A stretch of 64,000 nucleotides of DNA from a virus (IMGVR_UViG_3300045988_182694:5939-69938), one strand, 5' to 3'. Positions 4,334 through 63,988 are shown, counted from the first letter of the stretch. The notes: generated by a model from the sequence alone, not told the origin. Program-made: numbers and translations.

Positions 4334-4777
4334 TCAGGCCAGCAGTGACATACCAAGCCGAACAGTCTTCAGAGGAAACTGGTCGGCATCGAGACGGAAT
4401 GTTGTACCGCAGTCGGAGCAACGGGCTTCGGGTCCATAGGCACTTCCGTGCTTCGGGCCGAACTTCAGGCTTCCGCAGATGGGGCAGGTGGCACAGAGCA
4501 GAGTGGCTCCTCGTACCTGAATATCCAGAACGCTGGTGCCGGCAGGTGAGTTCGTCCAGCCCGCCAGATAAGCAGGGGAGACGCCCAGTACCTCGGCGAA
4601 GCGTTCCAAAGTCTTCAGGGGGATATTCTCCACTCGCCCAGACTCATACTTGTAGATGGTCTGTGGAGTCACCTCACACCTTTCTGCAAGCTGACTCTGA
4701 GATAGTTCCAGAGACAGCCGTGCATTTTTAATGCGGACAGCAGCAAGCGGCAGGGAAGTGGTTTGAGAAGTGCTCAC
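4334..4777 (-). CDS. XRE-family helix-turn-helix (HTH) regulator with C-terminal Cys-rich (zinc-ribbon-like) region
   Basis: HTH pattern LSQSQLAERCEVTPQTIYKYESG; C-terminal CATCPICG...CSDCG. Confidence 0.7.
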   Translation of the reverse strand: MSTSQTTSLPLAAVRIKNARLSLELSQSQLAERCEVTPQTIYKYESGRVENIPLKTLERFAEVLGVSPAYLAGWTNSPAGTSVLDIQVRGATLLCATCPICGSLKFGPKHGSAYGPEARCSDCGTTFRLDADQFPLKTVRLGMSLLA

Positions 4778-5439: not shown

Positions 5440-6003
5440 TCAGACACGGTCGTGTACGCAATCACCATTCCCATCAATCACAGAATCGTGCTGGAGGAAG
5501 GTGTCGTGGTACAGTGCCTTGCCAAACGCCTTGCAGACGGGGCATTCCCAGCTCACCTCCGTACCATCGTTGTAGTCGATTTCACGGTCGCCCTGATATT
5601 CGACCTCGGCGCCACACACGGGGCAGACGTCCTCCTCGTCGCCGTTGGGGTGCAGGAACGGGATGCGCTTGCCCTGAGGGTCAGTGAAGGGGACGACTAT
5701 GCGCTGAATAACGGCCAACAGAACGTCGATGTCGGCGTTTGCCATCATCAGTGCGATACGTCCGACCTCCAGCTTGAAATCCTCGGAAAAGATGTTCCCT
5801 TGGATAGTCGCAGCGATAGCCGCAGGATGCGCCATGGCCGCGACGGTATCACGTCCCAGCGAAATGAGGGCGTTGAGTGCCATAATGAACACGGTATGAC
5901 CGGATTCGGTATAGGCCTTGTCAAGCTCCTCATAGGCGGTGGCATCGTGATTCTTTCGACGCTGTGCGTCTAAACGGGCAATTTCATTAGGATAGTCAGT
6001 CAT
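5440..6003 (-). CDS. Hypothetical protein with CxxC...CxxC motif (187 aa)
   Basis: First gene after module B with GGGAGAAAGGAGAAATTC RBS; CPVCG...CPVCK. Confidence 0.75.
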   Translation of the reverse strand: MTDYPNEIARLDAQRRKNHDATAYEELDKAYTESGHTVFIMALNALISLGRDTVAAMAHPAAIAATIQGNIFSEDFKLEVGRIALMMANADIDVLLAVIQRIVVPFTDPQGKRIPFLHPNGDEEDVCPVCGAEVEYQGDREIDYNDGTEVSWECPVCKAFGKALYHDTFLQHDSVIDGNGDCVHDRV

Positions 6004-6073
6004 GAATTTCTCCTTTCTCCCTGCCTATGATAAGGACTTATGGGAACACAAATGTATGAAAATATATAAAAAA

Positions 6074-6203
6074 GACAGCTATCCCCGAAACGGGATAACT
6101 GTCTGAATTTACGTATGGTGACTTGGAAAACGGAGATAATCTCCTTTATAAAAATAGCTTCGTAATTATAATTCTATACTACCACAGTTTGATATTTTGT
6201 CAA
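6074..6203 (-). promoter_or_regulatory. Promoter-leader-hairpin module, copy B
   Basis: -35 TTGACA at 6198-6203 (minus sense); hairpin 6074-6103 followed by U6 in minus sense. Confidence 0.65.
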
Positions 6204-8088: not shown

Positions 8089-8118
8089 ATTATAGCCCAT
8101 TTGTACGCTCTCTGTCAA
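8089..8118 (-). promoter_or_regulatory. Sigma-70-type promoter for the 8058-7173 gene pair
   Basis: Minus sense TTGACA (8113-8118), 18 nt, TATAAT (8089-8094). Confidence 0.6.
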
Positions 8119-8191: not shown

Positions 8192-8644
8192 TCAAAATGG
8201 CAAACCAAGAGGCACATCTGTCGAAGGCAGAGATGTGTTCTCAACAGTGGCCTTCTGCTGCATTGCCTTCAGAATAGCGTTCTGTTGCTGCAACAACGCA
8301 TTCTGTTGGGAAATGAGAGAATTCTGTTTTGCCATAAGCTGTAGTGCCGAGTTGTAGAAGGCTCGTGCGGGAACAGCCGGATATGCCGCCTCATCGGGGA
8401 TGTCTTTTATCTGCTGGGTCTCAGATTGACCCAGCAGATAATCAACAGAGACATTGTAAACATCCGCAATTTTAGCGAAGTAATCAATGCTCGGCACGAT
8501 ACGCCCACGCAGCCACGTTGAGACAGCTTCCGGAGCAACACCGATAATCCTCGCAGCTTCCGTCACGGAGTCGCCGTTGTCTTCCATCAAAGACGTAAAA
8601 CGTTCGACAAAAGACTTTTTGAGCTTTTCCAAAAAGGCATCCAT
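8192..8644 (-). CDS. XRE-family HTH regulator with Q-rich C-terminus (150 aa)
   Basis: Pattern VTEAARIIGVAPEAVSTWLRG...DYLLG. Start refined to ATG 8644 (AAGGGAGG RBS). Confidence 0.65.
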   Translation of the reverse strand: MDAFLEKLKKSFVERFTSLMEDNGDSVTEAARIIGVAPEAVSTWLRGRIVPSIDYFAKIADVYNVSVDYLLGQSETQQIKDIPDEAAYPAVPARAFYNSALQLMAKQNSLISQQNALLQQQNAILKAMQQKATVENTSLPSTDVPLGLPF

Positions 8645-11161: not shown

Positions 11162-11231
11162 TTGTTTCTCCTTTCTCCCAGCCTTGAAGGACTTACGGGA
11201 ACACAAAAATGTATGTAGATATATAAAAAAA

Positions 11232-11360
11232 GACAGCCATCCCAAGATTGGGATAACTGTCTTGATTCTTTAAGGTGACTTGGAAAACGGAGATAATCTC
11301 CTTTATAAAAATAGCTTCGTAATTATAATTCTATACTACCACAGTTTGATATTTTGTCAA
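11232..11360 (-). promoter_or_regulatory. Promoter-leader-hairpin module, copy C
   Basis: -35 at 11355-11360; hairpin 11232-11261 plus U7 in minus sense. Confidence 0.65.
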
Positions 11361-15624: not shown

Positions 15625-16209
15625 TCAATCCGCCGCAGACTCGCCGTAGACCATCACATCGTGGTCGGCGTAGATAGCCTGCAGCTCGTCCTTGGTGATA
15701 CTCAGGCTGCTGAACAGCCAGTCGTCGGCATCCTTCCAGTCAGAGAACTTGGGGCTGATTTCCTTCCGGAACAGCTCCAGCGTTTCGAACAGGAGGGACT
15801 TGGCGCGAAGGGAGAGGTCTTCCTCAGGGTCAGGTGCGGGTATCTTGATGTCGTTTACCTCGTTGAGTTCAACGTCTTCCAAGGAAGTCTCGTAATCCTT
15901 CCAGAGATGGGCATTGTCCTCGAACCGCTTGACGATTTCGGCGATGGCGATGTCGGTCGTCGGCTTATGCGTGGTCTCCTCAAAGTAGCAAAACTCAAAG
16001 AAGGGATGGTCGGCCTCCGTCTCACTGCCGAAACGCTCGTCGTTCAGACCGAGAGGGCCGGGGATGAAGTATTCGCCGTCATCGAGACTGGCGATAATAC
16101 GCATCTTTTCTTCCTCCGACATCTGGCCGGCGAAAACGACCTCATGCCGGACCTTGTAGTTGTCCGCGTCACGATAGAGGTATGCGAGACGTGTGTTGGT
16201 GATACTCAT
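15625..16209 (-). CDS. Hypothetical acidic protein (194 aa)
   Basis: First gene after module D. Start at ATG 16209 behind GGGAGAAAGGAGAAAACA. Confidence 0.75.
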   Translation of the reverse strand: MSITNTRLAYLYRDADNYKVRHEVVFAGQMSEEEKMRIIASLDDGEYFIPGPLGLNDERFGSETEADHPFFEFCYFEETTHKPTTDIAIAEIVKRFEDNAHLWKDYETSLEDVELNEVNDIKIPAPDPEEDLSLRAKSLLFETLELFRKEISPKFSDWKDADDWLFSSLSITKDELQAIYADHDVMVYGESAAD

Positions 16210-16280
16210 TGTTTTCTCCTTTCTCCCTGCCTGTGATAAGGACTTACGGGAACTCAAAATGTATGAAAATATATAAAAAA

Positions 16281-16410
16281 GACAGCTACCCCAAGATTGG
16301 GATAACTGTCTGAATTTACGTATGGTGACTTGGAAAACGGAGATAATCTCCTTTATAAAAATAGCTTCGTGATTATAATTCTATACTACCACAGTTTGAT
16401 ATTTTGTCAA
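16281..16410 (-). promoter_or_regulatory. Promoter-leader-hairpin module, copy D
   Basis: -35 at 16405-16410; hairpin 16281-16310 plus U6. Confidence 0.65.
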
Positions 16411-19834: not shown

Positions 19835-19906
19835 GTTTTTCTCCTTTCTCCCTGCCTATTAAAAGGACTTATGGGCATATAAAATGTATAAAAATATATA
19901 AAAAAA

Positions 19907-20035
19907 GACAGCCACCCAAGATTGGGATAACTGTCTGAATTTACGTATGGTGACTTGAAAACGGAGATAAATCTCCTTTATAAAAATAGCTTCGTAATTA
20001 TAATTCTATACTACCACAGTTTGATATTTTGTCAA
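19907..20035 (-). promoter_or_regulatory. Promoter-leader-hairpin module, copy E
   Basis: -35 at 20030-20035; hairpin 19907-19935. Small palindrome variant GGAGATTTATCTCC. Confidence 0.65.
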
Positions 20036-21205: not shown

Positions 21206-22246
21206 TTAAGCTCCCTGCCCTCTGCGGTCGGCGATGATTCGCTCGATGACCTCCTTATACATGAACATAACCTTTTCACCGACAGCCTTTCCTTCTTCAA
21301 TATCCTCAATGCAAGTCGCAGTAAAGATGTAGAGGCTTTGTGCATTCGGCGTGATAGCAGTCAAGGCGTAGGTGCGTTTGCCGTATTGGAACATCTCACG
21401 ATACATGAGGTCCACACCATCACGAGCGAGGGCAGCTTTGATGCAGTCCTTGCCTTCGTAAAAATCAGCTTCCTCGTCCTTCGCAGCTTTCAGATTTCGT
21501 GCGGGGATATCGGCGTCATCATCCAAAAGAGGTCGCCGAAGATTTGCCAACGGAACCACGATGATACCTTCGTCTCCCGTACTTCCCGCAGGCTGCAGTC
21601 GCACGTCCAAATAACTGAACTCGTCCGCAAAGTCAACGATACGATACATGGCACCCTCATAGAGAAACTCACGCTCATAATCGGTTGCTTTTAACGGATA
21701 GAGAGGCATATGAGGAGGGCCGTTGGTGCGTCCTTTTTCATCCTCAATATCCTCTTGCAATCGCAGGCATCGGGCATCCCAGATGATTTTCGCATCAGTC
21801 ACGTTGGGGTTGTTGTGGTACGGCGTCCGGATGAACTCGATACCGAACACGGCAAACCGGAATCTCCGTCCAGCACTATTGCGCTTTGTCCCGAACGATG
21901 GCCTTTGTACGAAAATTCGCGCCTTATAAGTGTCCGCCACATACCACAAAGCCGCTTTAATATCATCGCGCATCTCACCAACGCATGACTCAACGTACTT
22001 GGGATTGTCTGCGTCTACGATAAGGTTGAGTGTGACTTCTGTGATATTAGCTTTTTCGTACGAAACCTTGCACGGACGGGGAAGGTCGGGGTCATTTCCG
22101 TAGCGTTCTTTTCCGAAGGGGTCTTTACAGCAATAGGCCTGTCCCTTCACATTGAACTCAACAACCTGCTTGATGAACTCACAGAGCCCATTCTTGTTGG
22201 TGATTGCTCCCGCACCAACGGTAGTATCGAGTGTGTGCAGGTTCAT
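21206..22246 (-). CDS. Paralog family member 3 (346 aa)
   Basis: Same family motifs. Its ATG overlaps the IscB stop (ATGA). Confidence 0.75.
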   Translation of the reverse strand: MNLHTLDTTVGAGAITNKNGLCEFIKQVVEFNVKGQAYCCKDPFGKERYGNDPDLPRPCKVSYEKANITEVTLNLIVDADNPKYVESCVGEMRDDIKAALWYVADTYKARIFVQRPSFGTKRNSAGRRFRFAVFGIEFIRTPYHNNPNVTDAKIIWDARCLRLQEDIEDEKGRTNGPPHMPLYPLKATDYEREFLYEGAMYRIVDFADEFSYLDVRLQPAGSTGDEGIIVVPLANLRRPLLDDDADIPARNLKAAKDEEADFYEGKDCIKAALARDGVDLMYREMFQYGKRTYALTAITPNAQSLYIFTATCIEDIEEGKAVGEKVMFMYKEVIERIIADRRGQGA

Positions 22247-23520
22247 GTTGTTTCTCCTCTCCTTTCAATTAAGTAACTTGTAGATGACTCAACAATCGTT
22301 AGTGCCGTGTAAGGAGCACCTGTATGAACTTTCTTACCATCGAAATTCTTCAATGCAAAATATCCTCTTACTCTTCTCCCTGTGATAAAGCACTCTTGTC
22401 CGTTGAACAGGACTTTATCCCAGAGCCGGAAACCAAACACCTCATAGGGAGCTTGATTCCGTTTACGGATACCACCCTTAATGGGATTGACCTTATGCAA
22501 CTGCCGGTTATGATGCCGAACGGCTCGGATACGATAGAGCGTATCGCTGGGCTGTGCGTCCGGCACACGAGCGATGCAACGGGCATCGTTCACATGGGAT
22601 TTCTGGATGGCGTGAGTCTCGCGCAACAGCTTTGTGATATAGCCGTAAGTCTCCTTCACAGGAATACTGAGCTCATTGCGAAGCCTCCGCATCAGAGTTT
22701 TACGCATGATACCCATGAATGCCGCATCGCGGAAACTCTTACCCCGTTTCCTCTTACCCTCCTCCAGAGTAACAACTCCTGCGTGTAAGAGCCTATGGCA
22801 CTTCTCACAGAGGGTGATAAGGTTATTGGGGGCATTGCCTCCGACATGGCGGCTTTCCTTGTGGTGGACTGCAAACTTCACTGGAGCCTTATCTGTGGAC
22901 TGGATTCCGCAGCACTGGCAGGTGTAGGTATCCCTCTTGAGAACGTACTGGCGAACGTTATATTCGTCGTACATCTCTCCGAGCTGATAATCCGTACCGA
23001 CCGGTAGGGGCTTACCCTCCAGCATAGCCTTGAGCCGCTGCACATCAAACTCCGCTGTCTCCACGATGACCACGGAGATAGGGAGGATGGCACACGTTCT
23101 CTTGATGGCTGTGATATGCTCTTGGATTTTTACCTCTACCGAAGGTGCCAGCCAACCCTTATGTTTACTGTGGACGCGGTTGTTAAACCGTACAGCACGG
23201 TAACGAGTCTTGCGGTTCCTCCGGCTGCGGCGCAGCTCCCGCCTCGTAGAGAGCAACTCAACCACATCGTTGCGAGGCTTTACCTCCGCAGCGAAGAGTT
23301 CCTTGCTCTCGGTACAAGCGGACAATCCGATGAACTTGCTTCCGGCATCTACGCCCAGCGTGATATCCTGTTTATATTCGCTGCTGCGGTGCAGCAGGCG
23401 AATGGTAAACGGGGTACGCCGGACCACTGTTGCCTTGTGGTCTCTCAACATGATGCGAGCCTTCCGTGGGGAGCACGGCATCAAAGGCTCGCCGTGCTGG
23501 TTGAGTACATACACATACAT
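22243..23520 (-). CDS. iscB: IscB RNA-guided nuclease (OMEGA family), 425 aa, catalytic motifs intact
   Basis: PLMP domain GEPLMPCSPRKARIMLR; RuvC-I LGVDAGSKFIG; Arg-rich bridge RRELRRSRRNRKTRYRAVRFNNR; RuvC-II VIVETAEFD; HNH CQCCG...HHKESRHVGGN...LCEKCHRLLH; RuvC-III KSHVNDARCIA. Start refined to ATG 23520 (AAAGGAGACGACATCA RBS). Confidence 0.85.
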   Translation of the reverse strand: MYVYVLNQHGEPLMPCSPRKARIMLRDHKATVVRRTPFTIRLLHRSSEYKQDITLGVDAGSKFIGLSACTESKELFAAEVKPRNDVVELLSTRRELRRSRRNRKTRYRAVRFNNRVHSKHKGWLAPSVEVKIQEHITAIKRTCAILPISVVIVETAEFDVQRLKAMLEGKPLPVGTDYQLGEMYDEYNVRQYVLKRDTYTCQCCGIQSTDKAPVKFAVHHKESRHVGGNAPNNLITLCEKCHRLLHAGVVTLEEGKRKRGKSFRDAAFMGIMRKTLMRRLRNELSIPVKETYGYITKLLRETHAIQKSHVNDARCIARVPDAQPSDTLYRIRAVRHHNRQLHKVNPIKGGIRKRNQAPYEVFGFRLWDKVLFNGQECFITGRRVRGYFALKNFDGKKVHTGAPYTALTIVESSTSYLIERRGETT

Positions 23521-23810
23521 TGATGTCGTCTCCTTTCTTGTCGTTGTGACAGTTAAACTTAGACAAAACTGTCCTCTCTGTAGAGAGTGAGAATCCTTCC
23601 CCAAGGTTTTTCCGAGGTTTCCATGTATGCAGCACTGTTCCTTACCCTCAGAACTGTTTAACCACATACCGCAGAGCGTGGGATTAGGATTTACGTCCCA
23701 CGGTGCCTATACATTCTCGGATAACGTAGTGCTCGAAGCACTTAGGGTAGTCAATCAGGGCTTGCAGCTATTCACCACAAGCCCGTGGTTTTAACCACGG
23801 GTTATTGACA
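23521..23810 (-). ncRNA. Candidate omega-RNA of IscB-1
   Basis: About 290 nt, ORF-free, hairpin-rich (for example ACCCGTGG-TTAAAA-CCACGGGC and GACAGTT...AACTGTC), directly upstream of iscB on the same strand. 5' boundary uncertain. Confidence 0.55.
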
Positions 23811-25292: not shown

Positions 25293-25365
25293 GTTTTTCT
25301 CCTTTCTCCCCGCCTACAAAGAGGACTTATGGGAATCCCAAATGTATGATAATATATAAAAAAAA

Positions 25366-25492
25366 GACAGCCATCCCAAGATTGGGATAACTGTCTGAAT
25401 TTATGTGGTGACTTGAAAACGGAGATAATCTCCTTTATAAAAATAGCTTCGTAATTATACTTCTATACTACCACAAACAGATACTTTGTCAA
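25366..25492 (-). promoter_or_regulatory. Promoter-leader-hairpin module, copy F (slightly diverged promoter half)
   Basis: -35 at 25487-25492; hairpin 25366-25395. Confidence 0.6.
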
Positions 25493-28679: not shown

Positions 28680-28752
28680 AATTTTCTCCTTTCTCCCAGC
28701 CTGTTGTGAGGCCTTACGGGAATACAAAACGTATGTAAATATATAAAAAAAA

Positions 28753-28881
28753 GACAGCCACCCCATGAATGGGATAACTGTCTGAATTTATTGCGGTGAC
28801 TTGGAAAACGGAGATAATCTCCTTTATAAAAATAGCTTCGTAATTATAATTCTATACTACCACAACCTGATATTTTGTCAA
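28753..28881 (-). promoter_or_regulatory. Promoter-leader-hairpin module, copy G
   Basis: -35 at 28876-28881; hairpin 28753-28782 plus U8. Confidence 0.65.
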
Positions 28882-31770: not shown

Positions 31771-31825
31771 AGTTCATTTCTCCTTTCGTTTTTCTTGCAA
31801 AATGTATAAAAATATATAAAAAAAA

Positions 31826-31953
31826 GACAGCCACCCCACGAATGGGATAACTGTCTTGATTACTTATGGTGACTTGGAAACGGAGATAATCTCCTTTATA
31901 AAAATAGCTTCGTAATTATAATTCTATACTACCACAGTTTGATATTTTGTCAA
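31826..31953 (-). promoter_or_regulatory. Promoter-leader-hairpin module, copy H (short 5' UTR variant)
   Basis: -35 at 31948-31953; hairpin 31826-31855 plus U8. Confidence 0.65.
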
Positions 31954-36246: not shown

Positions 36247-36456
36247 CTCCGTAGATGGTGAACACTTGTGCTCGGTTGGACTATTCCAGAATATTCCAAC
36301 TTGAAAATGATAACAAAAAAGTCGCTCTCTTTTATTCTGATGTCTAAAAGGAGCGGGAATTTATTTGTTTTGACCAACAATGGCTCCTTTTGGGGAAAGC
36401 GTTTTCATCTATGGGAAAACGTGGGGAAATCATTCTTGTTTGTGGGGCCATGTCCC

Positions 36457-36486
36457 ATTATAAACACGAACATAAAATTTTGTCAA
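36457..36486 (-). promoter_or_regulatory. Consensus sigma-70 promoter driving the recG operon
   Basis: Minus sense TTGACA (36481-36486), 18 nt, TATAAT (36457-36462). Two more TTGACAA boxes at 36515-36520 and 36549-36554. Confidence 0.65.
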
Positions 36487-36648
36487 GTCAAAATCGCTAC
36501 AAAATCAAAAAAATTGTCAAGTTGTTTTTATTCTCCTTCTAAATATTTTGTCAAGTCTCAAACCCAGCACCACAACTATGCTTTTTGTAGAAACGGCTGA
36601 TTTAGGCGTATGTCCTGCCGGTTAGATTTTTTGTCTTTATAATTCGAC

Positions 36649-36677
36649 TTGACATTTTCCTACGTTCGTGTTAGTAT
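36649..36677 (+). promoter_or_regulatory. Plus-strand promoter towards the tRNA cluster
   Basis: TTGACA (36649-36654), 17 nt, TAGTAT (36672-36677) preceded by TGT. A second weaker TTGACA sits at 36727-36732. Confidence 0.5.
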
Positions 36678-36865
36678 TGAACCGTGGACAGGGCAAGGAA
36701 ATCGAAGCCGCAAAGCTCGATTAGAATTGACATTTTTCTCTTTTAGGGAAGTATAAACGTCAAGATTCCTAAACCCTCTCCGGTTTTCTTCTTTCTTTTA
36801 TCAAACTCGTAAGCGCAACATAAAACCAGCCTCCTGAGGGAAGTGCGCGGAGGCTGCTTTGATAC

Positions 36866-37266: not shown

Positions 37267-37344
37267 GATGGCGTAGCATAATGGTAATGCCGTGCCTCTC
37301 TCACAGACAACGTTATGCTGGTTCGACCCCAGCCGCCATTGCCA
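37267..37344 (+). tRNA. Non-canonical tRNA-like gene (best hand fold gives anticodon CUC, Glu?)
   Basis: Acceptor GATGGCG/CGCCATT, D-arm GCAT-AATGGTA-ATGC, T-arm GCTGG-TTCGACC-CCAGC, CCA encoded. The anticodon stem has a C.A mismatch and extra nucleotides. Confidence 0.35.
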
Positions 37345-37447
37345 ACCGGCGTTCCACCCACCCCGCCGGTATTCATCTCTCTTCGTTTCTCTTTCGAGAG
37401 AAGGCGGTGGCCTCCTGTACGGAGGCCGCCGCCAACTACCAAAACTT

Positions 37448-37523
37448 GCTGGTGTAGCTCAGTAGGCAGAGCGGCGCACTCGTAACGCGCAGGTCGTGGG
37501 TTCGACCCCCACCGTCAGCTCCA
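37448..37523 (+). tRNA. tRNA-Thr (anticodon CGU)
   Basis: 76-nt cloverleaf drawn by hand; anticodon loop CTCGTAA; T-loop TTCGACC; CCA encoded; A31.C39 mismatch. Confidence 0.8.
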
Positions 37524-37649
37524 ATCCACACTTTTTCTCTTTCTTTTCATTTTTATCCCCCCACTGTACGAAGCCCTCACAGACAACGCAGTTGAAAATT
37601 AAATTTCAGCCGCACCGCCTGTGGGGGCTTCACCCCATCTATCACCTAT

Positions 37650-37725
37650 GCTGCTGTAGCTCAGTAGGTAGAGCGGCGGATTTGTAACCCGCAGGTCGGG
37701 AGTTCGAGCCTCCCCAGCAGCTCCA
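37650..37725 (+). tRNA. tRNA-Thr (anticodon UGU)
   Basis: 76-nt cloverleaf; anticodon loop TTTGTAA; CCA encoded. Confidence 0.8.
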
Positions 37726-37764
37726 TTTTAATTCAACTCTACGGAGTCCAACTTCTTTACATAT

Positions 37765-37840
37765 GCGGATGTCGTCTAATTGGTGAGGCACCGGCCCTCC
37801 AAGCCGGTCATTGCGGGTTCGAGTCCCGTCATCCGCTCCA
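37765..37840 (+). tRNA. tRNA-Gly (anticodon UCC) with C at position 33
   Basis: Perfect acceptor GCGGATG/CATCCGC; all arms canonical; anticodon loop CCTCCAA (C32 C33 U34 C35 C36 A37 A38); CCA encoded. Confidence 0.7.
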
Positions 37841-38389: not shown

Positions 38390-39442
38390 ATGGCGACGAC
38401 ATTCCAAGCGTTTAAGTATCGCATTTATCCTACGGATGAACAAATCGAGGTCATCGAACGCACCTTCAAGTGCTGCCGCTTCGTGTGGAATCACTTTTTG
38501 GAGCGTACCAGCAAAATCTACGACCGCCGGCAGGAAAGTATGTCAAAGTTCGACTGCATGAAGGTTCTGACCGAGATGCGTGAGCGCTGGCCGTGGCTGG
38601 AAGATTGCGGGTGTTCCGCAGAGCGATATGCTATCGTGAATCTGTTCGAGGCGCGTAAGGCCTTCTTCCGCCGTATAAAGGCAGGGGAGAAGCCCGGTTA
38701 TCCCAAGTTTAAGAGCGCCCGTTGTCCGTCTCAGAGCTTTACTACCGCCGGAACCATCTATGTGACGGACGAGTGCATCCAAATCCCTTTCGGCAGTCAG
38801 TATCAGAAAATCAATAAGGTCAAGCGCGGCAGTGGCCGCCCCGCTGTGGGTATCCCCCGTGAGGTTACGATATCCCGTTCCTCTACCGGTAAATACTGGG
38901 CATCCGTCTGTTGCATGGTGGAGCGCGAGGAACTGCCTGTCGCCGAGGGCGAAGTCGGTATCAGCCTCGGTCTGAAGGAGCTGGCTATCGACAGCAACGG
39001 CGTACACTATGAGAACCCGAAGCATCTGAGCAAGTCCGCAAAGCGTCTTGCTCGTGAGCAGCGTCGTCTGTCCCGCAAGCAGAAGGGTTCTGCCAACTAT
39101 GAGAAGAACCGTAAGCTGGTGGCTGAAATCCATGAGCATATTGCCAACCAGCGGCGTGACTATCGACATAAAATCAGCCGCGAACTCGTCAACAGCAACC
39201 AGCTCATCGCTGTTGAAAAGGTGGCTGTCAAGTCTCTGGTTGAGGGCAACGAGCAGGCCAAGAGCATCCTCGATGCCGGCTGGTCTGAGCTGACCAGCAT
39301 GATTAAGTATAAGGCTGAGTGGGCTGGACGCACTCTGGTGGACGTAGACACAGCCACCGTAGCGCCGGAAGCCAAGCATGACGAGGCGCTGGCACAGGTC
39401 GTGCTGTCCGAAGGTCAGCGCATGGCTTCCGAGGGCTATTGA
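38390..39442 (+). CDS. tnpB: TnpB-like protein, predicted nuclease-dead and C-terminally truncated (350 aa)
   Basis: Classic N-terminus FKYRIYPTDEQ. RuvC-I reads GISLGLKELA (Ser where Asp is expected); RuvC-II Glu retained (IAVEKVAVKSL). Homology ends after AGWSELTSMIKYKAEWAGRTLVDVD. No Zn-finger or RuvC-III. Confidence 0.8.
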   Translation: MATTFQAFKYRIYPTDEQIEVIERTFKCCRFVWNHFLERTSKIYDRRQESMSKFDCMKVLTEMRERWPWLEDCGCSAERYAIVNLFEARKAFFRRIKAGEKPGYPKFKSARCPSQSFTTAGTIYVTDECIQIPFGSQYQKINKVKRGSGRPAVGIPREVTISRSSTGKYWASVCCMVEREELPVAEGEVGISLGLKELAIDSNGVHYENPKHLSKSAKRLAREQRRLSRKQKGSANYEKNRKLVAEIHEHIANQRRDYRHKISRELVNSNQLIAVEKVAVKSLVEGNEQAKSILDAGWSELTSMIKYKAEWAGRTLVDVDTATVAPEAKHDEALAQVVLSEGQRMASEGY

Positions 39443-39648: not shown

Positions 39649-41133
39649 ATGGACATGGTATATGTGCTTAACAAAGATGGTAAGCCTTTGATGGCAACGA
39701 CTCGTGGTGGACGTGTGCGTTATCTTCTCAAGGAGAAGAAAGCACGAGTCGTAAGTTCTACCCCGTTTACCATCCAGTTGAACTATGATACCCCTGATGC
39801 TACCCAAGACTTGATTCTTGGCATCGACCCCGGCAGGACGAACATCGGCGTAGCTGTCGTCAAGGAGGACGGCTCCTGTGTGTTCTCCGCACATCTGGAG
39901 ACTCGCAACAAGGATGTACCCCTCCTGATGAAGAAGCGTGCTGCGTTTCGGAGAAACCATCGCACGTTGGACCGGCGCAGGAAGCGCCAGCGTCGTGCGA
40001 AGGCTGCGGGAACCACCATCGCCGAGGGTTCTGTCGAGAGATTGCTCCCCGGCTATGAGAAGCCCATTATGTGCCACCATATCCGCAATAAGGAGGCGCG
40101 GTTCAATAACCGCAGCCGCCCTGCGGGTTGGTTGACACCCACGGCGAACCATCTACTGCAGACCCACATCAACTTGATTGCGAAGGTTGCAAAGTTCCTG
40201 CCTATCACAAAAGTGGTGGTGGAACTGAACCGCTTCGCTTTCATGGCGATGGATAATCCCAATATCCGTCGGTGGGAATACCAGCAGGGTCCGTTGTGCG
40301 GACTGGGCTCCGTGGAGGATGCGGTGTACGCACAGCAGGACGGACATTGCCTGTTCTGCAAGAAGCCCATTGACCATTACCATCATGTTATCCCTCGCCA
40401 TAAAAGAGGGAGTGAGACGTTGGCAAATCGGTGTGGACTTTGTGCGAAGCACCATGACCTCGTCCATACGGACAAGGCGTGGGCGGATAAGCTGGTCACA
40501 CGGAAGGAAGGTATGAATAAAAAGTACCACGCCTTGAGTGTGCTGAACCAGATTATCCCGCACCTCATGGAGTACATCGGGAGCGAGACGCTCTACGATG
40601 CCTACGCCACGGATGGTCGCTCTACCAAGGGCTTCCGAATCGCCAAGAACGTGCCGAAGGAACATTACACGGATGCCTACTGTATCGCCTGTTCCATCTT
40701 GGACACCGATATTGAGGTCTCCGCTCCTGTCGAACCCTTTGAGATGAAGCAGTTCCGCCGGCACGACCGGCAGGCTTGTATCCGCCAAATGGTTGACCGG
40801 AAGTACATTCTGGACGGCAAGGTCGTTGCAACAAACCGGCATAAGACCATTGAGCAAAAGTCCGATAGTCTTGAGGAGTTCCGCGAGGCTCACGGCAATG
40901 CTGCGGTATCGCAGCTTACCGTGAAGCCCCACCATCCCCAATGCAAGGATATGGCTCGTATCATGCCGGGGGCGGTGATGGTTTTTGATGGGGCTGTTGG
41001 CGTCTTTCAGGGCTCATCAGGACGGAACAATGGTACACCGAACTATTACAATTCTACGAAAGGAGAAAGGTTTTTAACGAGGAGCTGTGTGCTTCTCGCG
41101 CAGAACGCAGGTATGGTTTTTATCCCCGCCTGA
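39649..41133 (+). CDS. iscB: IscB RNA-guided nuclease (494 aa), catalytic motifs intact
   Basis: PLMP-like [19 protein letters not shown]; Ruv[13 protein letters not shown]; Arg-rich [16 protein letters not shown]; Ruv[11 protein letters not shown]; [19 protein letters not shown]...[14 protein letters not shown]; Ruv[24 protein letters not shown]. Confidence 0.85.
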
Positions 41134-41394: not shown

Positions 41395-41815
41395 GGTGTA
41401 TAAAGCCCTGAAATAACAGGGTTGTATACCCTTCACCCCAAACACTGTCAAAGAGGCCATGGTGTATGATACCCTGAAACGACAGGGTTGTATACCATCT
41501 CCGTCAGCTTCTCGCAGCGGGCCTGCGGTGTATGATACCCTGAAACGACAGGGTTGTATACCCTATCTTAATATGAGGCGCAAAAGTGCCGTGGTGTATG
41601 ATACCCTGAAACGACAGGGTTGTATACCCCGGATGGGACGCGAGTAAGCCTCTATGTGGTGTATAAGGCCCTGAACTAACAGGGGTGTATACCAGAATAT
41701 CCCGTCCTCATCGACCGACACAAGGCGTATAAGACCCCGAAATAGCAGGGTTGTATACCAATGGCTCGTTCGGAATTTGGCATATACGGTTCTAAAATAA
41801 CGGGGGGTGTATACC
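41395..41815 (+). CRISPR. CRISPR-like array 1: 7 repeats (36 nt) and 6 spacers
   Basis: Repeat GGTGTATGATACCCTGAAACGACAGGGTTGTATACC. Repeat starts 41395, 41461, 41527, 41593, 41658, 41724 and ~41780. Spacers 30, 30, 30, 29, 30 and ~20 nt, all unique. Repeats degenerate towards the right. Confidence 0.8.
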
Positions 41816-44817: not shown

Positions 44818-44896
44818 TTGACAAAATATCGAAATATAGTAGTATAGAATTATAAGGAAGGACAGTCTAACACAGACTGTCCTTCCGCTTTTTTAT
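44818..44896 (+). promoter_or_regulatory. Plus-strand variant of the promoter-hairpin module (copy I)
   Basis: TTGACA (44818-44823), 17 nt, AGTATAGAATTATAA, then a 13-bp hairpin GGAAGGACAGTCT-AACAC-AGACTGTCCTTCC and T6. Confidence 0.6.
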
Positions 44897-45740: not shown

Positions 45741-46541
45741 ATGAAAACGAAATTCAAAATTCCTCGGTGGGCTCTCTTCACCGTTATCATTCTGGCCTTC
45801 ATTGGCGGTCTTTTCGCAATCTCTACGCTGCCCGTCTTTGCAGCCCGCGAAAGCTCTCCGCCTTTGGCAGTAGCAGAAGCCGCGCAGAACGAGGAAAAGG
45901 ACGCAAATTCTGATGCTCAGACTCCCGAAGCAGACAAGACGACCGATGAACAGGGAAGTGCTGAAGCCCCCGTAGAGGCCGAGTCTCAGGCAGACGACGC
46001 CGACGTTGTCGAAGAGACTCCCGCCGAAGAGCCTGTTCAGGAAACCCCGACTACCTGTTCCTACTGCGGCAGTGCAGAACACACCAGAGACTACTGCGCC
46101 GTTCGTGCCGTTGACAATGGTGCCGTTGGCCGGCTCCGGATTCCCTCTGTCGGTGTTGACGTGGCTGTCTACGACGTTACTTGGTACTCTCTGCAGCATA
46201 CCACCGAGAGTGACAACTACACGCAGGCCGTTACAGATGCATGGGACAGCGCAGCACAAATCGTCTATCTCGGCCAGACCGTTATTGGCGACCATAATAA
46301 TCAGGGCTTCTCCGCCATCAACAACTGCTCCGAAGGCACCTACGCTTACATCGACATGGGCGACTCTGTCCTGACCTATGTTTGCACCGGCATCCAGCAT
46401 GGTCGTAACCCCGGTGGCTATCTCACCGGGGCCGATGGCGATAGCATCTATACCTCTTACTTCAATCCCAACGGTCTGACGCTGTATACCTGTCTCGACC
46501 ACAACTTCAATGTTGCCCTCGTGACATTCCAGCTTGCATAA
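45741..46541 (+). CDS. Secreted or membrane-anchored zinc-knuckle protein 2 (paralog)
   Basis: Signal/TM segment, acidic linker, CSYCGSAEHTRDYC, ...IGDHNNQGF...LTLYTC.... Confidence 0.7.
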   Translation: MKTKFKIPRWALFTVIILAFIGGLFAISTLPVFAARESSPPLAVAEAAQNEEKDANSDAQTPEADKTTDEQGSAEAPVEAESQADDADVVEETPAEEPVQETPTTCSYCGSAEHTRDYCAVRAVDNGAVGRLRIPSVGVDVAVYDVTWYSLQHTTESDNYTQAVTDAWDSAAQIVYLGQTVIGDHNNQGFSAINNCSEGTYAYIDMGDSVLTYVCTGIQHGRNPGGYLTGADGDSIYTSYFNPNGLTLYTCLDHNFNVALVTFQLA

Positions 46542-46557
46542 AGGGGGTGCAGCTTTA

Positions 46558-47331
46558 ATGAAAACAAAGAAGATTTCCCGCCGCGCTGTTACGCTGGCTG
46601 CCTTTTTGCTGGTAAGTGCAACATCTTTACATATGGCCTGTGCAGAGGCTTCGGTGCCGTTCGATTACTTTACTGATGACCTCTCTGTGTCCGCTGCCGC
46701 CGTTGTGGAGGAAGATAAATACCTGCCTCCTGAGTGGTTCACAAAAGAAAATGCTGTAAGTGAAGTGGACTCAGACACGCCTCCGGTGGAGACTCCTACC
46801 CCTGCGGGCGAATTCTCTGTAGCGACCCCCGTGTCTGAGCCCGCACTGGAAACCGCAGCAGCCTGCAGCTATTGCGGCAGCGCAGGGCACTCGCAGAATA
46901 GGTGTGCCGTTTACGCTGTCGAACAGCGAGGTGCCGTTGGGCGTTGGTCTGTCCCTTCTATTGGAATAGATGTCGCTTGCTTCACCTATGTGCTTGGAAG
47001 CGATTCTTTCGAGTACGGACAGGCAATTTGTGACGCTGCCGATAGTGCCGGCTACAGTGCGTATGGGAGCCAGTATCTCATTGCAGACCACAACTATCAG
47101 GGCTTTTCTGCCATAGCCAACTGCGCGGTTGGTGCGGTGGGATATATGGATTACGGAAACAGTCGAACAGAATATGTTTGTACTGGGGTGGAGTATGGGC
47201 ACAATGAAGGCACGGAACTGACTGATAATGACGGAAACGATGTTGCGTACAACAACAGTGGAGGAATTACCCTTTACACCTGTTACAACGGTTGGCAAAA
47301 CGTCGTTATCGTTTACTTTACTCCGACTTAA
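46558..47331 (+). CDS. Secreted or membrane-anchored zinc-knuckle protein 3 (paralog)
   Basis: ATG 46558 behind a GGGGG RBS; CSYCGSAGHSQNRC; ...IADHNYQGF...ITLYTC.... Confidence 0.7.
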   Translation: MKTKKISRRAVTLAAFLLVSATSLHMACAEASVPFDYFTDDLSVSAAAVVEEDKYLPPEWFTKENAVSEVDSDTPPVETPTPAGEFSVATPVSEPALETAAACSYCGSAGHSQNRCAVYAVEQRGAVGRWSVPSIGIDVACFTYVLGSDSFEYGQAICDAADSAGYSAYGSQYLIADHNYQGFSAIANCAVGAVGYMDYGNSRTEYVCTGVEYGHNEGTELTDNDGNDVAYNNSGGITLYTCYNGWQNVVIVYFTPT

Positions 47332-54632: not shown

Positions 54633-55586
54633 TCAGAACGGCAGGTCGCTGTCGTCGATACCGTTCAGCTCATAGAAGCCGTTGGGGGCGGGCTGACCGT
54701 AGTTCATCGGCTGCTGACCCTGCTGCTGAGGCGCAGGAGCGGGCTGACCCTGCTGAGGCATAGCCTGCTGCTGGGGAGCGTAACCGCCCTGAGGAGCCTG
54801 CTGAGGTGCGGGCTGCTGGTAGCCATTGGCAGCGGGAGCGCCGAAGGAAGACTGGTAGCCCTGAGAAGCCTGCTGCTGGGCATTGGGGTCCATGCAGGAG
54901 CCGCTGTTGCGGTCACGGAGCAGAGTGAAGTCACTGACCGTGATGTTCAGGCTCTTGGCAGGCGTTCCGTCATTGCGCTTGTACTCCTGAATCTTGGCAG
55001 AGCCGGAAATAATCAGCACAGGGTTGCTGTGCCGACCGGTAGCGACCATGTTCAGGAAGCGCTCGGCGACCTTCTCCCACATAGAGCAGTTTGCCCACAC
55101 CACACCCTTGTCATTGGGAACCAGCGTTCCCTGACCGAAGACACGGTCCAGAGTGTTCTGGCGGCCCTGAATGGGCATAGAGAAGTTGATGTAGGGCTTG
55201 CCCTCGCTGGTGTACTTCATCTGGGAGCAGCGGGTGACAGCACACTCGAAGTCCACATAGATGAAGGGCTTACCGTCGGAGGTCACAGCATTGGTGAAAT
55301 GACCGTAGGTGATGAACTGACGGCCCTGCTGCTGACCCTGCGCGGGAGCACCCTGCTGCGGATAGCCGCCCTGCTGGGGCGCAGGCTGGCCCTGAGGCAT
55401 ACCCTGCTGAGGATACCCACCCTGAGCATAGCCCTGAGGGGCCGGCTGCTGGGGAGGATAGCCGTAGGCGGGCTGGCCCTGCGGAGCGCCGTACTGAGGC
55501 TGTGCGGGATACTGGCCCTGTGCCTGAGGATAGCCGTACTGGTTGGGAGCCTGCTGCATACCACCGTTGTTGTTCTGATAAGACAT
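54633..55586 (-). CDS. ssb: Single-stranded DNA-binding protein with Q/P/G/Y-rich N-terminal extension and linker (317 aa)
   Basis: Central OB-like core (...[14 protein letters not shown]...), Q/P/G-rich tail ending in the canonical acidic tip DDSDLPF. ATG 55586 behind AAAGGAGAAAATT. Confidence 0.75.
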
Positions 55587-55689
55587 AATTTTCTCCTTTC
55601 TTCCGCACGAAGGCGGACCAAATCCTGACAAATGTTGATTTTTGGGGTGTCAGAAAATGGCATATTTGATGTATTTATATATTAAAAAA

Positions 55690-55818
55690 GACAGCTATCC
55701 CGTAATTGGGATAACTGTCTTTAATAATTAGGGTGACTTGAAAACGGAGATAAATCTCCTTTATAAAAATAGCTTCGTAATTATAATTCTATACTACCAC
55801 AGTTTGATATTTTGTCAA
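55690..55818 (-). promoter_or_regulatory. Promoter-leader-hairpin module, copy J (different downstream 5' UTR)
   Basis: -35 at 55813-55818; hairpin 55690-55719. Confidence 0.65.
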
Positions 55819-63766: not shown

Positions 63767-63860
63767 GATTTTTCTCCTTTCTCGGACAGCCCTCCGCTTT
63801 GAAGCGGTCGGGAAACTTATGTCCATTACGAAATTTAGAGGTGACTTATATATACAAAAA

Positions 63861-63988
63861 GACAGCTATCCCGTTGTTGGGATAACTGTCTTAATTACTT
63901 ATGGTGACTTGAAAACGGAGATAATCTCCTTTATAAAAATAGCTTCGTAATTATAATTCTATACTACCACAGTTTGATATTTTGTCAA
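63861..63988 (-). promoter_or_regulatory. Promoter-leader-hairpin module, copy K
   Basis: -35 at 63983-63988; hairpin 63861-63890. Confidence 0.65.

Follow-up and report, generated by a model that had tools for sequence, protein, structure and literature searches.

A repeated cassette of promoter, conserved leader RNA and terminator-like hairpin heads at least 11 operons of a plasmid-like metagenomic element

The window analysed here, a 64,000-nucleotide stretch of an IMG/VR contig (IMGVR_UViG_3300045988_182694:5939-69938), encodes RecG-like and RecD2-like proteins, YqaJ, DUF4942, a large serine recombinase and two IscB-like proteins. TnpB, DnaJ-like, DUF1064, two sortase-like, SSB-like and TraI_2-like proteins are also encoded, together with XRE helix-turn-helix regulators, a zeta-toxin-like protein, PemK toxins and YopX. 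At least 11 operons of the window are headed by a cassette of about 135 bases, composed of a strong promoter, a near-unchanging leader RNA and a terminator hairpin. Ten copies are found on the minus strand: A (1-128, with the U-tract cut off by the window start), B (6068-6203), C (11225-11360), D (16275-16410), E (19900-20035), F (25358-25492), G (28745-28881), H (31818-31953, with a short 5' UTR), I (55684-55818, heading the operon of the SSB-like protein) and J (63856-63988), where the spans of B-J run from the -35 hexamer through the end of the U-tract. All ten had been placed here by an initial annotation of the sequence, and all are recovered by alignment and pattern searches, with 0 matches expected by chance. 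When the ten regions are aligned, the mean column identity is 83%, with long invariant blocks. Patterns for the hairpin, the promoter core and the leader, each searched alone, return the same ten minus-strand sites, with 0.00 expected in shuffled sequences.

The module is also present and conserved in related genomes, where the initial annotation had suggested looking for it. An exact 25-mer of the leader occurs in six IMG/VR contigs with 4-12 copies each (9-12 in the four contigs longer than 100 kb), and all copies within a contig lie on one strand. A hairpin-based scan revealed a second lineage with a diverged module, and the pooled lineages yielded 59 distinct module sequences and 34 distinct hairpins. 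The module is confined to these two close lineages of 100-190 kb metagenomic contigs. Since the protein encoded behind copy J is 94% identical between them, conservation across the lineages is weak evidence, and our argument rests on the divergence of paralogous copies. No match was found among INPHARED phages and PLSDB plasmids in either near or distant search mode, and a search for distant relatives through the protein behind copy J returned only the same two lineages and one unrelated context without the module. The sole match in GTDB representative genomes (L042) was a chance one, also without the module.

The order of parts reported by the initial annotation holds both in the sequence and in the alignment of the copies; we describe it for copy D, all coordinates being on the minus strand. 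The -35 hexamer TTGACA (16405-16410), located by the promoter scan, is invariant in all 59 distinct modules. It is followed, 16 bp away, by the extended -10 TGTGg-TAGTAT (16383-16393), in which the TG is kept in all variants, and then by a second -10-like hexamer, TATAAT (16372-16377), invariant as well and forming the core of the palindrome AATTATAAT(T). The next segment (16339-16371) comprises the invariant 5' leader CACGAAGCUAUUUUUAUAAA, present in ten exact copies in the window, and the small stem-loop SL1 (GGAGA-UUA-UCUCC; 16339-16351; -5.7 kcal/mol), where a Shine-Dalgarno-like sequence is paired with an anti-Shine-Dalgarno-like one. Behind SL1, the alignment reveals a conserved single-stranded CCAAGUCACC (16324-16333) and an A/U-rich linker (16311-16323), which differs among copies in sequence and length. 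The terminator-like element (16275-16310) was delineated by folding and by its variants; it comprises a hairpin of 12-13 bp with a dG of about -19.7 (16281-16310) and a U6 tract (16275-16280). A conserved 5' UTR of 65 nt (16210-16274) begins with AUAUAU..., continues with UUCCCGUAAGUCCU-loop-AGGCAGGGAG and ends with the ribosome-binding site AAAGGAG in front of the ATG start codon (16207-16209). This type of 5' UTR is common to copies B-G and to many related copies, among which we saw no covariation. Two candidate features of this region were dismissed. A second AAGUC motif after the terminator, considered as a paired protein site, is not constant in sequence and appears as AAGUC, AAGAC, AAGCC or AAGGC, and a second promoter overlapping the hairpin and AUAUAU scores in copy F only and is not conserved.

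The orientation of the module is always that of the downstream genes, and its place is always between a terminator and a ribosome-binding site. According to the initial annotation, every copy lies just after the terminator of the preceding operon; this is the case for copies B-H (within about 15-50 nt), while no terminator immediately precedes copy I, and a 250-nt spacer precedes copy A. The related statement that the module stands at the head of every leftward operon was too broad. The operon of the RecG-like protein (36.2 to 32.0 kb) has another consensus promoter and no module, and the promoter scan detected a further consensus promoter inside operon C, at 8089-8118. A high copy number and an exclusively intergenic location would also be expected of a dispersed repeat that is selfish or neutral (MITE-like, or the scar of a recombination event) and regulates nothing, and the mosaic sharing of linker and loop types among copies does suggest recombination. 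Still, the constant orientation and placement just described speak against such a repeat, as do the consensus promoter, the site-by-site conservation, the compensatory changes in the hairpin (see below) and the lack of terminal inverted repeats; we consider this explanation very improbable. The cassette is a real, non-chance, selected regulatory unit.

The promoter scan supports the view that the promoter is a strong one of the sigma-A type (TTGACA-16-TGnTAGTAT). The -10 hexamer had been misassigned, for the -35 pairs with TGTGg-TAGTAT at a distance of 16 bp, and the best parse of the promoter is TTGACA, 16 bp, TGTGg-TAGTAT, that is, an extended -10 promoter. The TATAAT hexamer lies 27 bp from the -35 and 5 bp downstream of TAGTAT, and such a distance from the -35 excludes it as the partner -10. 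A '-16 region' (TRTG) consensus for extended -10 promoters of Gram-positive bacteria was reportedly described by Voskuil and Chambliss in 1998, and we take TGTGg-TAGTAT of the cassette to match it. If TAGTAT is the -10, then, judging from the spacing, the invariant TATAAT would be found at about -1 to +5. In lambdoid late promoters, this is about where sigma-dependent pause elements, likewise -10-like, are located. A sigma-dependent pausing role for TATAAT is hypothetical, and a Q-like loading site at the same hexamer, suggested by its position, is plausible but unproven. Other readings of this region were discarded. For an ops/RfaH-like reading of GGTAGTATAG, the motif falls within the -10 region, ahead of the start of transcription, and we saw no paralogue of NusG; a plus-strand antisense promoter (TTTATA-16-TATAAT) has a weak -35, is degraded in the second lineage and would give a transcript without overlap with the leader; in the case of a single-stranded-DNA promoter (Frpo-like), the -35 and -10 have no complementary partner.

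The region around the start site is also where a DNA-level explanation finds its footing. A 10-bp palindrome, AATTATAATT, overlaps with the start site, and a distance of 20 bp separates two TTATAA palindromes. In this view, the invariance would mainly concern the DNA, the cassette being a repeated promoter-operator unit bound by a global repressor of the element, and a burst of expression would follow entry into a new host, with the hairpin only damping leaky transcription; such a scheme is compatible with an attenuator. Two XRE-type helix-turn-helix regulators encoded at 4334-4777 and 8192-8644, both in module-headed operons, are candidate repressors, and the genes behind modules (SSB-like, YqaJ with RecD2, DUF4942, toxin-antitoxin pairs) belong to a type that serves establishment or anti-defence. 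Precedents are CUP/ArdK, found in the leading region of IncN plasmids (PMC6289460, which cites Delver and Belogurov 1997), and SPBRE/MrpR, found in SPbeta (PMC10516654); both are 13-15 bp protein-binding DNA sites. A conserved promoter-linked repeat there heads about 6-10 operons of one mobile element, much as the cassette promoter occurs in 11 copies in the window; a conserved leader RNA or a promoter-proximal terminator, as in the cassette, is not mentioned for CUP or SPBRE in the passages cited (PMC6289460, PMC10516654). The conservation of the cassette, however, extends to about +55, well past usual operators, and the half-sites of SL1 accept G.U-type changes and spacing shifts of 1-3 nt, as would be expected of an RNA hairpin rather than a DNA palindrome. 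The operator also leaves the compensatory upkeep of a 12-14 bp hairpin and U-tract unexplained, and we regard it as an unlikely account of the cassette.

Turning to the leader, positions of about -17 to +55 form an essentially invariant block, and the varying stretches are five positions of the promoter spacer, the linker of 11-13 nt and the hairpin loop (indels included). Blanket gene conversion would not leave such variable islands beside an invariant leader, so selection acting site by site is the simpler explanation; as judged from the aligned copies, the leader sequence is under purifying selection. A four-nucleotide loop in SL1, which the initial annotation had ascribed to copies E and J, is actually found in E and I; in copy E, the 3' arm is also 1 base short, leaving an unpaired base in the 5' arm. 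Among related variants, the SL1 loop ranges from 3 to 6 nt, and the longest (GGAG-CUUUGU-CUCC) comes with the loss of one stem pair. The GGAG/CUCC stem is kept throughout, with two variants pairing via G.U. Such changes in loop length, together with the G.U pairs, are more easily reconciled with an RNA hairpin than with a DNA palindrome.

Without the 3' arm of the terminator, the leader folds only into SL1 (-6.3 kcal/mol, z = -0.12), and folding of the leader did not reveal any aptamer or alternative fold of the riboswitch or T-box type. Rfam gave no match at the gathering threshold for the whole window, nor at E <= 10 for copy D. A leader peptide was ruled out, as indels among the copies break every reading frame. 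The Shine-Dalgarno-like AAAGGAG in the leader is followed by no conserved ORF and is itself paired in SL1.

This last motif deserves attention in connection with a possible role of the cassette in mRNA stability or processing. AAAGGAG near the 5' end would then act as a STAB-SD, and the hairpin would be protective after cleavage in the A/U-rich linker, its likeness to a terminator being incidental or only partly functional. The motif indeed lacks a usable start codon and is found at a distance of about 20 nt from the predicted 5' end, the linker is situated just 5' of the hairpin, and in the plus-strand variant described below, only about 5 nt separate the start of the hairpin from the predicted 5' end, the arrangement expected of a 5' stabiliser. 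On the other hand, a U5-8 tract, not needed by a stabiliser, universally follows the stem, the decoy Shine-Dalgarno sequence is paired in SL1, and the main hairpin is as far as about 65 nt away from the 5' end. Overall, we find a stability module distinctly improbable.

The initial annotation argued that the hairpin is selected as an RNA of mRNA sense, and compensatory and wobble-only changes now bear this out. Its observation that changes in the 3' arm are limited to A/G opposite a fixed U holds for the window copies, and the loops do vary freely. Our test set included 34 distinct hairpins, with pairing statistics calculated on the 28 ungapped variants. Folding energies of the 34 variants in mRNA sense range from -14.8 to -24.2 kcal/mol, with stems of 12-14 bp, and in 33 of them the reverse complement folds weaker, because 1-4 G.U pairs turn into C.A mismatches. 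Paired cells account for 99.7% in the ungapped variants, as opposed to 31-53% when the partners are slid by 1-3 columns. Pairs 8, 10 and 12 change on both sides (A-U to G-C, C-G to U-A), while four pairs vary by wobble only. The hairpin is thus an RNA structure under strand-specific selection. Hairpin and leader come together: each of the 57 copies retrieved by the leader alone has the hairpin with T5-8 right after the stem (57/57), and no family member retrieved by the hairpin lacks the leader. The hairpins of the cassette received the top scores in the terminator scan, and, as read from the sequence, they have the full anatomy of an intrinsic terminator, placed after a promoter.

A variant of the cassette was found on the plus strand (44818-44894) and is conserved in two related contigs (L120 and L132). 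Its promoter, detected by pattern search at 44818-44845, reads TTGACA-16-TAGTAT...TATAAG. Directly after it comes a hairpin that differs from the minus-strand family, a 13-bp GGAAGGACAGUCU-AACAC-AGACUGUCCUUCC followed by the U-tract GCUUUUUU (44856-44894; dG -23.5, z -8.4). If transcription starts inside TATAAG, the whole hairpin would be present in the RNA; with a start after TATAAG, it would be truncated. The variant heads membrane-protein and sortase-like genes. The same promoter joined to an unrelated hairpin on the opposite strand indicates that a promoter followed by a terminator-like hairpin is a recurring design of the element, which goes beyond a single repeat family.

The plus-strand variant also bears on the possibility that the main product of the cassette is a small RNA. 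In such a case, the hairpin would be a leaky constitutive attenuator, 11-14 strong promoters would produce a multi-copy small RNA of about 100 nt, and a fixed fraction of read-through would express the operons. The invariant single-stranded ACGAAGCUAUUUUUAUAAA, the anti-Shine-Dalgarno-like UCUCC and CAAGUCACC might then act in trans by pairing or as a protein decoy. A conserved unpaired sequence, a variable linker, a terminator with compensatory or wobble changes and a U-tail are the classic signature of small RNAs, and the module is never found without its terminator. Yet no complements of the single-stranded segments of the leader, and hence no complementary target, were found elsewhere in the window, and the absence of an Rfam match (see above) weighs in the same direction. 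Known multi-copy small RNAs are stand-alone genes, not operon leaders, and a plus-strand variant with a different RNA and the same logic fits the control of read-through better. We therefore consider the small RNA an unlikely main purpose of the cassette.

By prediction, transcription starts about 95-102 nt before the end of the hairpin. From the U-tract to the first gene, the scan showed no promoter-like site, save for one weak, unconserved match in copy F, which argues that the operons depend on read-through. The preceding operons, for their part, end in their own terminators (copies B-H). Tentatively, and at somewhat short of even confidence, we interpret the cassette as a regulon-wide attenuator in which a common factor sets the level of read-through. 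The strong sigma-A promoter would start a transcript of about 95-102 nt. Its first 55 nt or so would be a near-invariant, mostly unstructured leader with an A/U-rich 5' end, the 5-bp SL1 and CAAGUCAC, and it would end in an intrinsic terminator with a hairpin of 12-14 bp and U5-8, where RNA polymerase would stop by default. The operon behind the cassette would then be made only through read-through. Because no antiterminator fold of the leader competes with the terminator, a single, shared trans-acting factor most likely governs read-through, and it might recognise either the invariant leader RNA or the DNA of the promoter and initial transcribed region. The -10-like TATAAT could hold a sigma-bound polymerase in a promoter-proximal pause. 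All the modules, at least 11 in the window, would form one regulon that is switched together. Actual termination, its regulated read-through and the existence of the factor are what we infer from this arrangement. It is also possible, if doubtful, that a distributed antitermination regulon is at work, with a factor of the element or of the host reading the unstructured leader of about 55 nt or the sigma-paused TATAAT complex and licensing read-through at a dozen operons or more over about 100 kb. Such a regulon would follow the logic of lambda Q or N on the scale of a whole replicon, yet lack the proteins and RNA folds of these systems.

For a candidate antiterminator, which the initial annotation had suggested looking for, we scanned about 120 proteins of the window and related loci, amounting to about half of the element, with Pfam and PHROGs; none belonged to the Q, N, NusG/LoaP, ANTAR or BglG-type families. 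A scan for small arginine-rich ORFs returned mostly spurious frames, and no N-like protein was identified among them. The Zn-ribbon protein encoded at 5440-6003 attracted our attention, as its CxxC...CxxC spacing recalls lambda Q. It has 9 clusters of homologues and an AlphaFold2 model with a mean pLDDT of 70.7. As a candidate antiterminator it was rejected, with no fold match (Foldseek, nothing better than E = 0.7) and no sequence match in the PDB. Fully processive antitermination would, moreover, override the ordinary 10-12 bp terminators at operon ends too, making the many promoters redundant. It fits poorly for this reason, and a factor would have to act locally or at short range.

The comparison with lambda Q, suggested by the initial annotation, is worth spelling out. 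At PR'-tR', a strong promoter is combined with a -10-like sequence among the first transcribed bases and, about 100-200 nt downstream, with an intrinsic terminator; the genes beyond are not expressed until RNA polymerase has been modified while at the promoter. The cassette likewise has a promoter, a -10-like TATAAT and a promoter-proximal hairpin with terminator anatomy. The predicted position of TATAAT at about -1 to +5 agrees with Q-like logic, whereas the lack of an antiterminator family among the 120 or so proteins and the negative structure test of the Zn-ribbon protein do not. Lambda, besides, has one late promoter per genome, in contrast to at least 11 cassettes here, which are not accompanied by a Q homologue among the proteins scanned and belong to a plasmid-like element of a probable Firmicute host. 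The leader is reminiscent of lambda N/nut and of the leaders of rRNA operons, where a conserved linear RNA with a small hairpin is repeated at several operons and serves a common factor. However, GCUAUUUUUAUAAA and SL1 resemble boxA and boxB only loosely, and the cassette contains the terminator itself. T-boxes, S-boxes, other riboswitches, PyrR and TRAP place one conserved leader with a terminator before many operons, and their regulons were historically recognised in this way. They use mutually exclusive folds or repeated protein-binding triplets, whereas the leader of the cassette has neither. T4-type PeSL cassettes, finally, have a stem-loop upstream of an early promoter; the hairpin of our cassette is downstream of the promoter, which sets it apart from that group.

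Several leader RNAs, mostly from Gram-positive mobile elements, let RNA polymerase pass terminators, namely HK022 put, EAR, Tn916 canT (PMC11658703) and conAn2 of pLS20, which works with ConAn1 (PMC8191782). In such systems, terminators insulate the genes of the element; all four RNAs are structured, put and EAR consisting of several stem-loops and conAn2 measuring 260-600 bp, and all occur once per element (PMC11658703, PMC8191782). The leader of the cassette does not belong with them, being about 55 nt long, nearly unstructured (one 5-bp hairpin) and present in more than 10 copies. An RNA in cis that always overrode the adjacent terminator would also make that terminator pointless. In the cATT zipper attenuator of conjugation operons in the pLS20 family of Gram-positive plasmids, found once per plasmid, a long central stem-loop is extended by pairing between an upstream stem-loop and the terminator (PMC13401043). 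The leaders of cATT and the cassette have in common that a weak stem-loop comes first and an intrinsic terminator further downstream. In contrast to cATT, the cassette has no predicted central stem, SL1 and the terminator are complementary over no more than about 5 nt, and the copies are many, so that it falls outside this family as well. Overall, the cassette is best seen as a case of promoter-proximal attenuation or antitermination in a form that does not match the RNA-based families compared.

The element carrying the cassette also invites comment. The initial annotation treated it as a phage and thought in terms of infection, which the gene content makes doubtful, since plasmid-type genes (ParA/ParB, RepL, sortase-pilus, toxin-antitoxin, SSB) are present and no capsid or terminase family was seen. 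In the related contigs, within about 14 kb of modules, there are genes for a GBS104-like tip pilin with a VWA domain, a CobT/VWA protein, a CHC2 primase with DUF3854, Fic, ParA, ParB and RepL, as well as RelB, MazE, VbhA and YpsA. No capsid, portal, tail or terminase families were detected among the genes sampled, which represent about half of the element. Provisionally, a large plasmid or phage-plasmid of gut Clostridia appears more likely than a lytic phage; the host is probably a Firmicute, and complete copies of the element are probably 191-193 kb long. Dozens of blocks of public assemblies list the encoded proteins in their index. As a separate observation, a Vescimonas plasmid region with the same YqaJ-RecD2 pair carries genes of the AcrIIA9 and PcfJ families.

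Our results bear on an abundant uncultured family, for which the cassette of about 135 bp offers a sequence tag suitable for tracking as well as a ready-made part that can be tested; the IMG/VR 'viral' contigs carrying the module look plasmid-like. Should read-through prove constitutive, the design would be an unusual one, with every operon co-producing the same abundant small RNA. If read-through is regulated, the cassette would be a compact modular gate through which one signal controls about a dozen operons, and gut Firmicutes would be expected to have a new factor or mechanism of antitermination.

Behind the module, the promoter-leader-terminator cassette present in ten minus-strand copies (A to J), lies a second conserved 5' UTR element, also on the minus strand, found at 16210-16274 in copy D and in the equivalent stretch of copies B, C, E, F and G. 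It spans the gap from the U-tract, the run of U directly 3' of the module hairpin, to the ribosome-binding site, and its parts follow the order AUAUAU..CAUACAUUU..UUCCC(G/A)UAAG-N-CCU-loop-AGGC-N-GGGAG-AAAGGAG, in which the loop is variable; no covariation was found among the copies in the stems. Four UTR types were distinguished, and every one of them starts with (N)AUAUAU directly after the U-tract.

Because AATTATAATT is palindromic, the module copies also match a promoter on the plus strand (TTTATA-16-TATAAT; 16352-16379 in copy D, with a counterpart in each of the others), directed away from the leader. This antisense promoter is probably not functional, since its -35 box is weak and since lineage 2, the second contig lineage, which carries a diverged module, has a broken version of the palindrome.

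Other promoters were found outside the module. A perfect consensus promoter, TTGACA-18-TATAAT, is located on the minus strand inside operon C, the gene group headed by copy C (8089-8118). It directly follows an XRE helix-turn-helix gene (8192-8644) and precedes an ORF of 71 aa and a gene for a zeta-toxin-like protein; together with these neighbouring genes, it may form an autonomous toxin-antitoxin or immunity unit. Where the minus-strand and plus-strand gene blocks diverge, a control region (36450-36690) contains a minus-strand consensus promoter, TTGACA-18-TATAAT (36486-36457), and three CTTGACAA(A/T)(A/T)T boxes (~36.47-36.56 kb). On the plus strand, a TTGACA-17-TGnTAGTAT promoter (36649-36677) lies upstream of a cluster of four plus-strand tRNA genes (37267-37837) carried on the mobile element.

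The stretch that separates module A from the operon B terminator holds four direct minus-strand copies of TCCCGACTAAA(A/G)T, recurring exactly every 34 bp (176-290); they look like iterons, a centromere-type array or a regulator-binding array. Behind copy I, an SSB-like protein is encoded on the minus strand (54633-55586), with long Q/P/G/Y-rich low-complexity regions flanking its OB fold on both sides.

Operon F includes a minus-strand IscB gene (RRXRR + HNH) with its HEARO/omega RNA (22243-23809), the latter matching Rfam RF02033 at 138 bits. The plus-strand block encodes TnpB (OrfB_IS605; 38390-39442) and a second IscB-like protein with RRXRR only (39649-41133), whose gene is adjoined on the downstream side by 2.5 copies of a 66-bp tandem repeat with 83% matches (41461-41628); this repeat could represent an iteron array or the end of a transposon. 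In related contigs, IscB copies occupy different positions; thus, IscB/TnpB-type guide-RNA nucleases are mobile within this element family.

Finally, we would like to comment on the nature of the element. Module-bearing IMG/VR 'viral' contigs encode ParA, ParB and RepL, sortases with a GBS104-like tip pilin, and likewise primase, Fic and toxin-antitoxin pairs, taking together related loci (e.g., L146, L012 and L167) and 45741-47331 on the plus strand of the window. No virion genes were seen in the sampled parts of these contigs. Overall, the module-bearing contigs may be misfiled plasmids or phage-plasmids.
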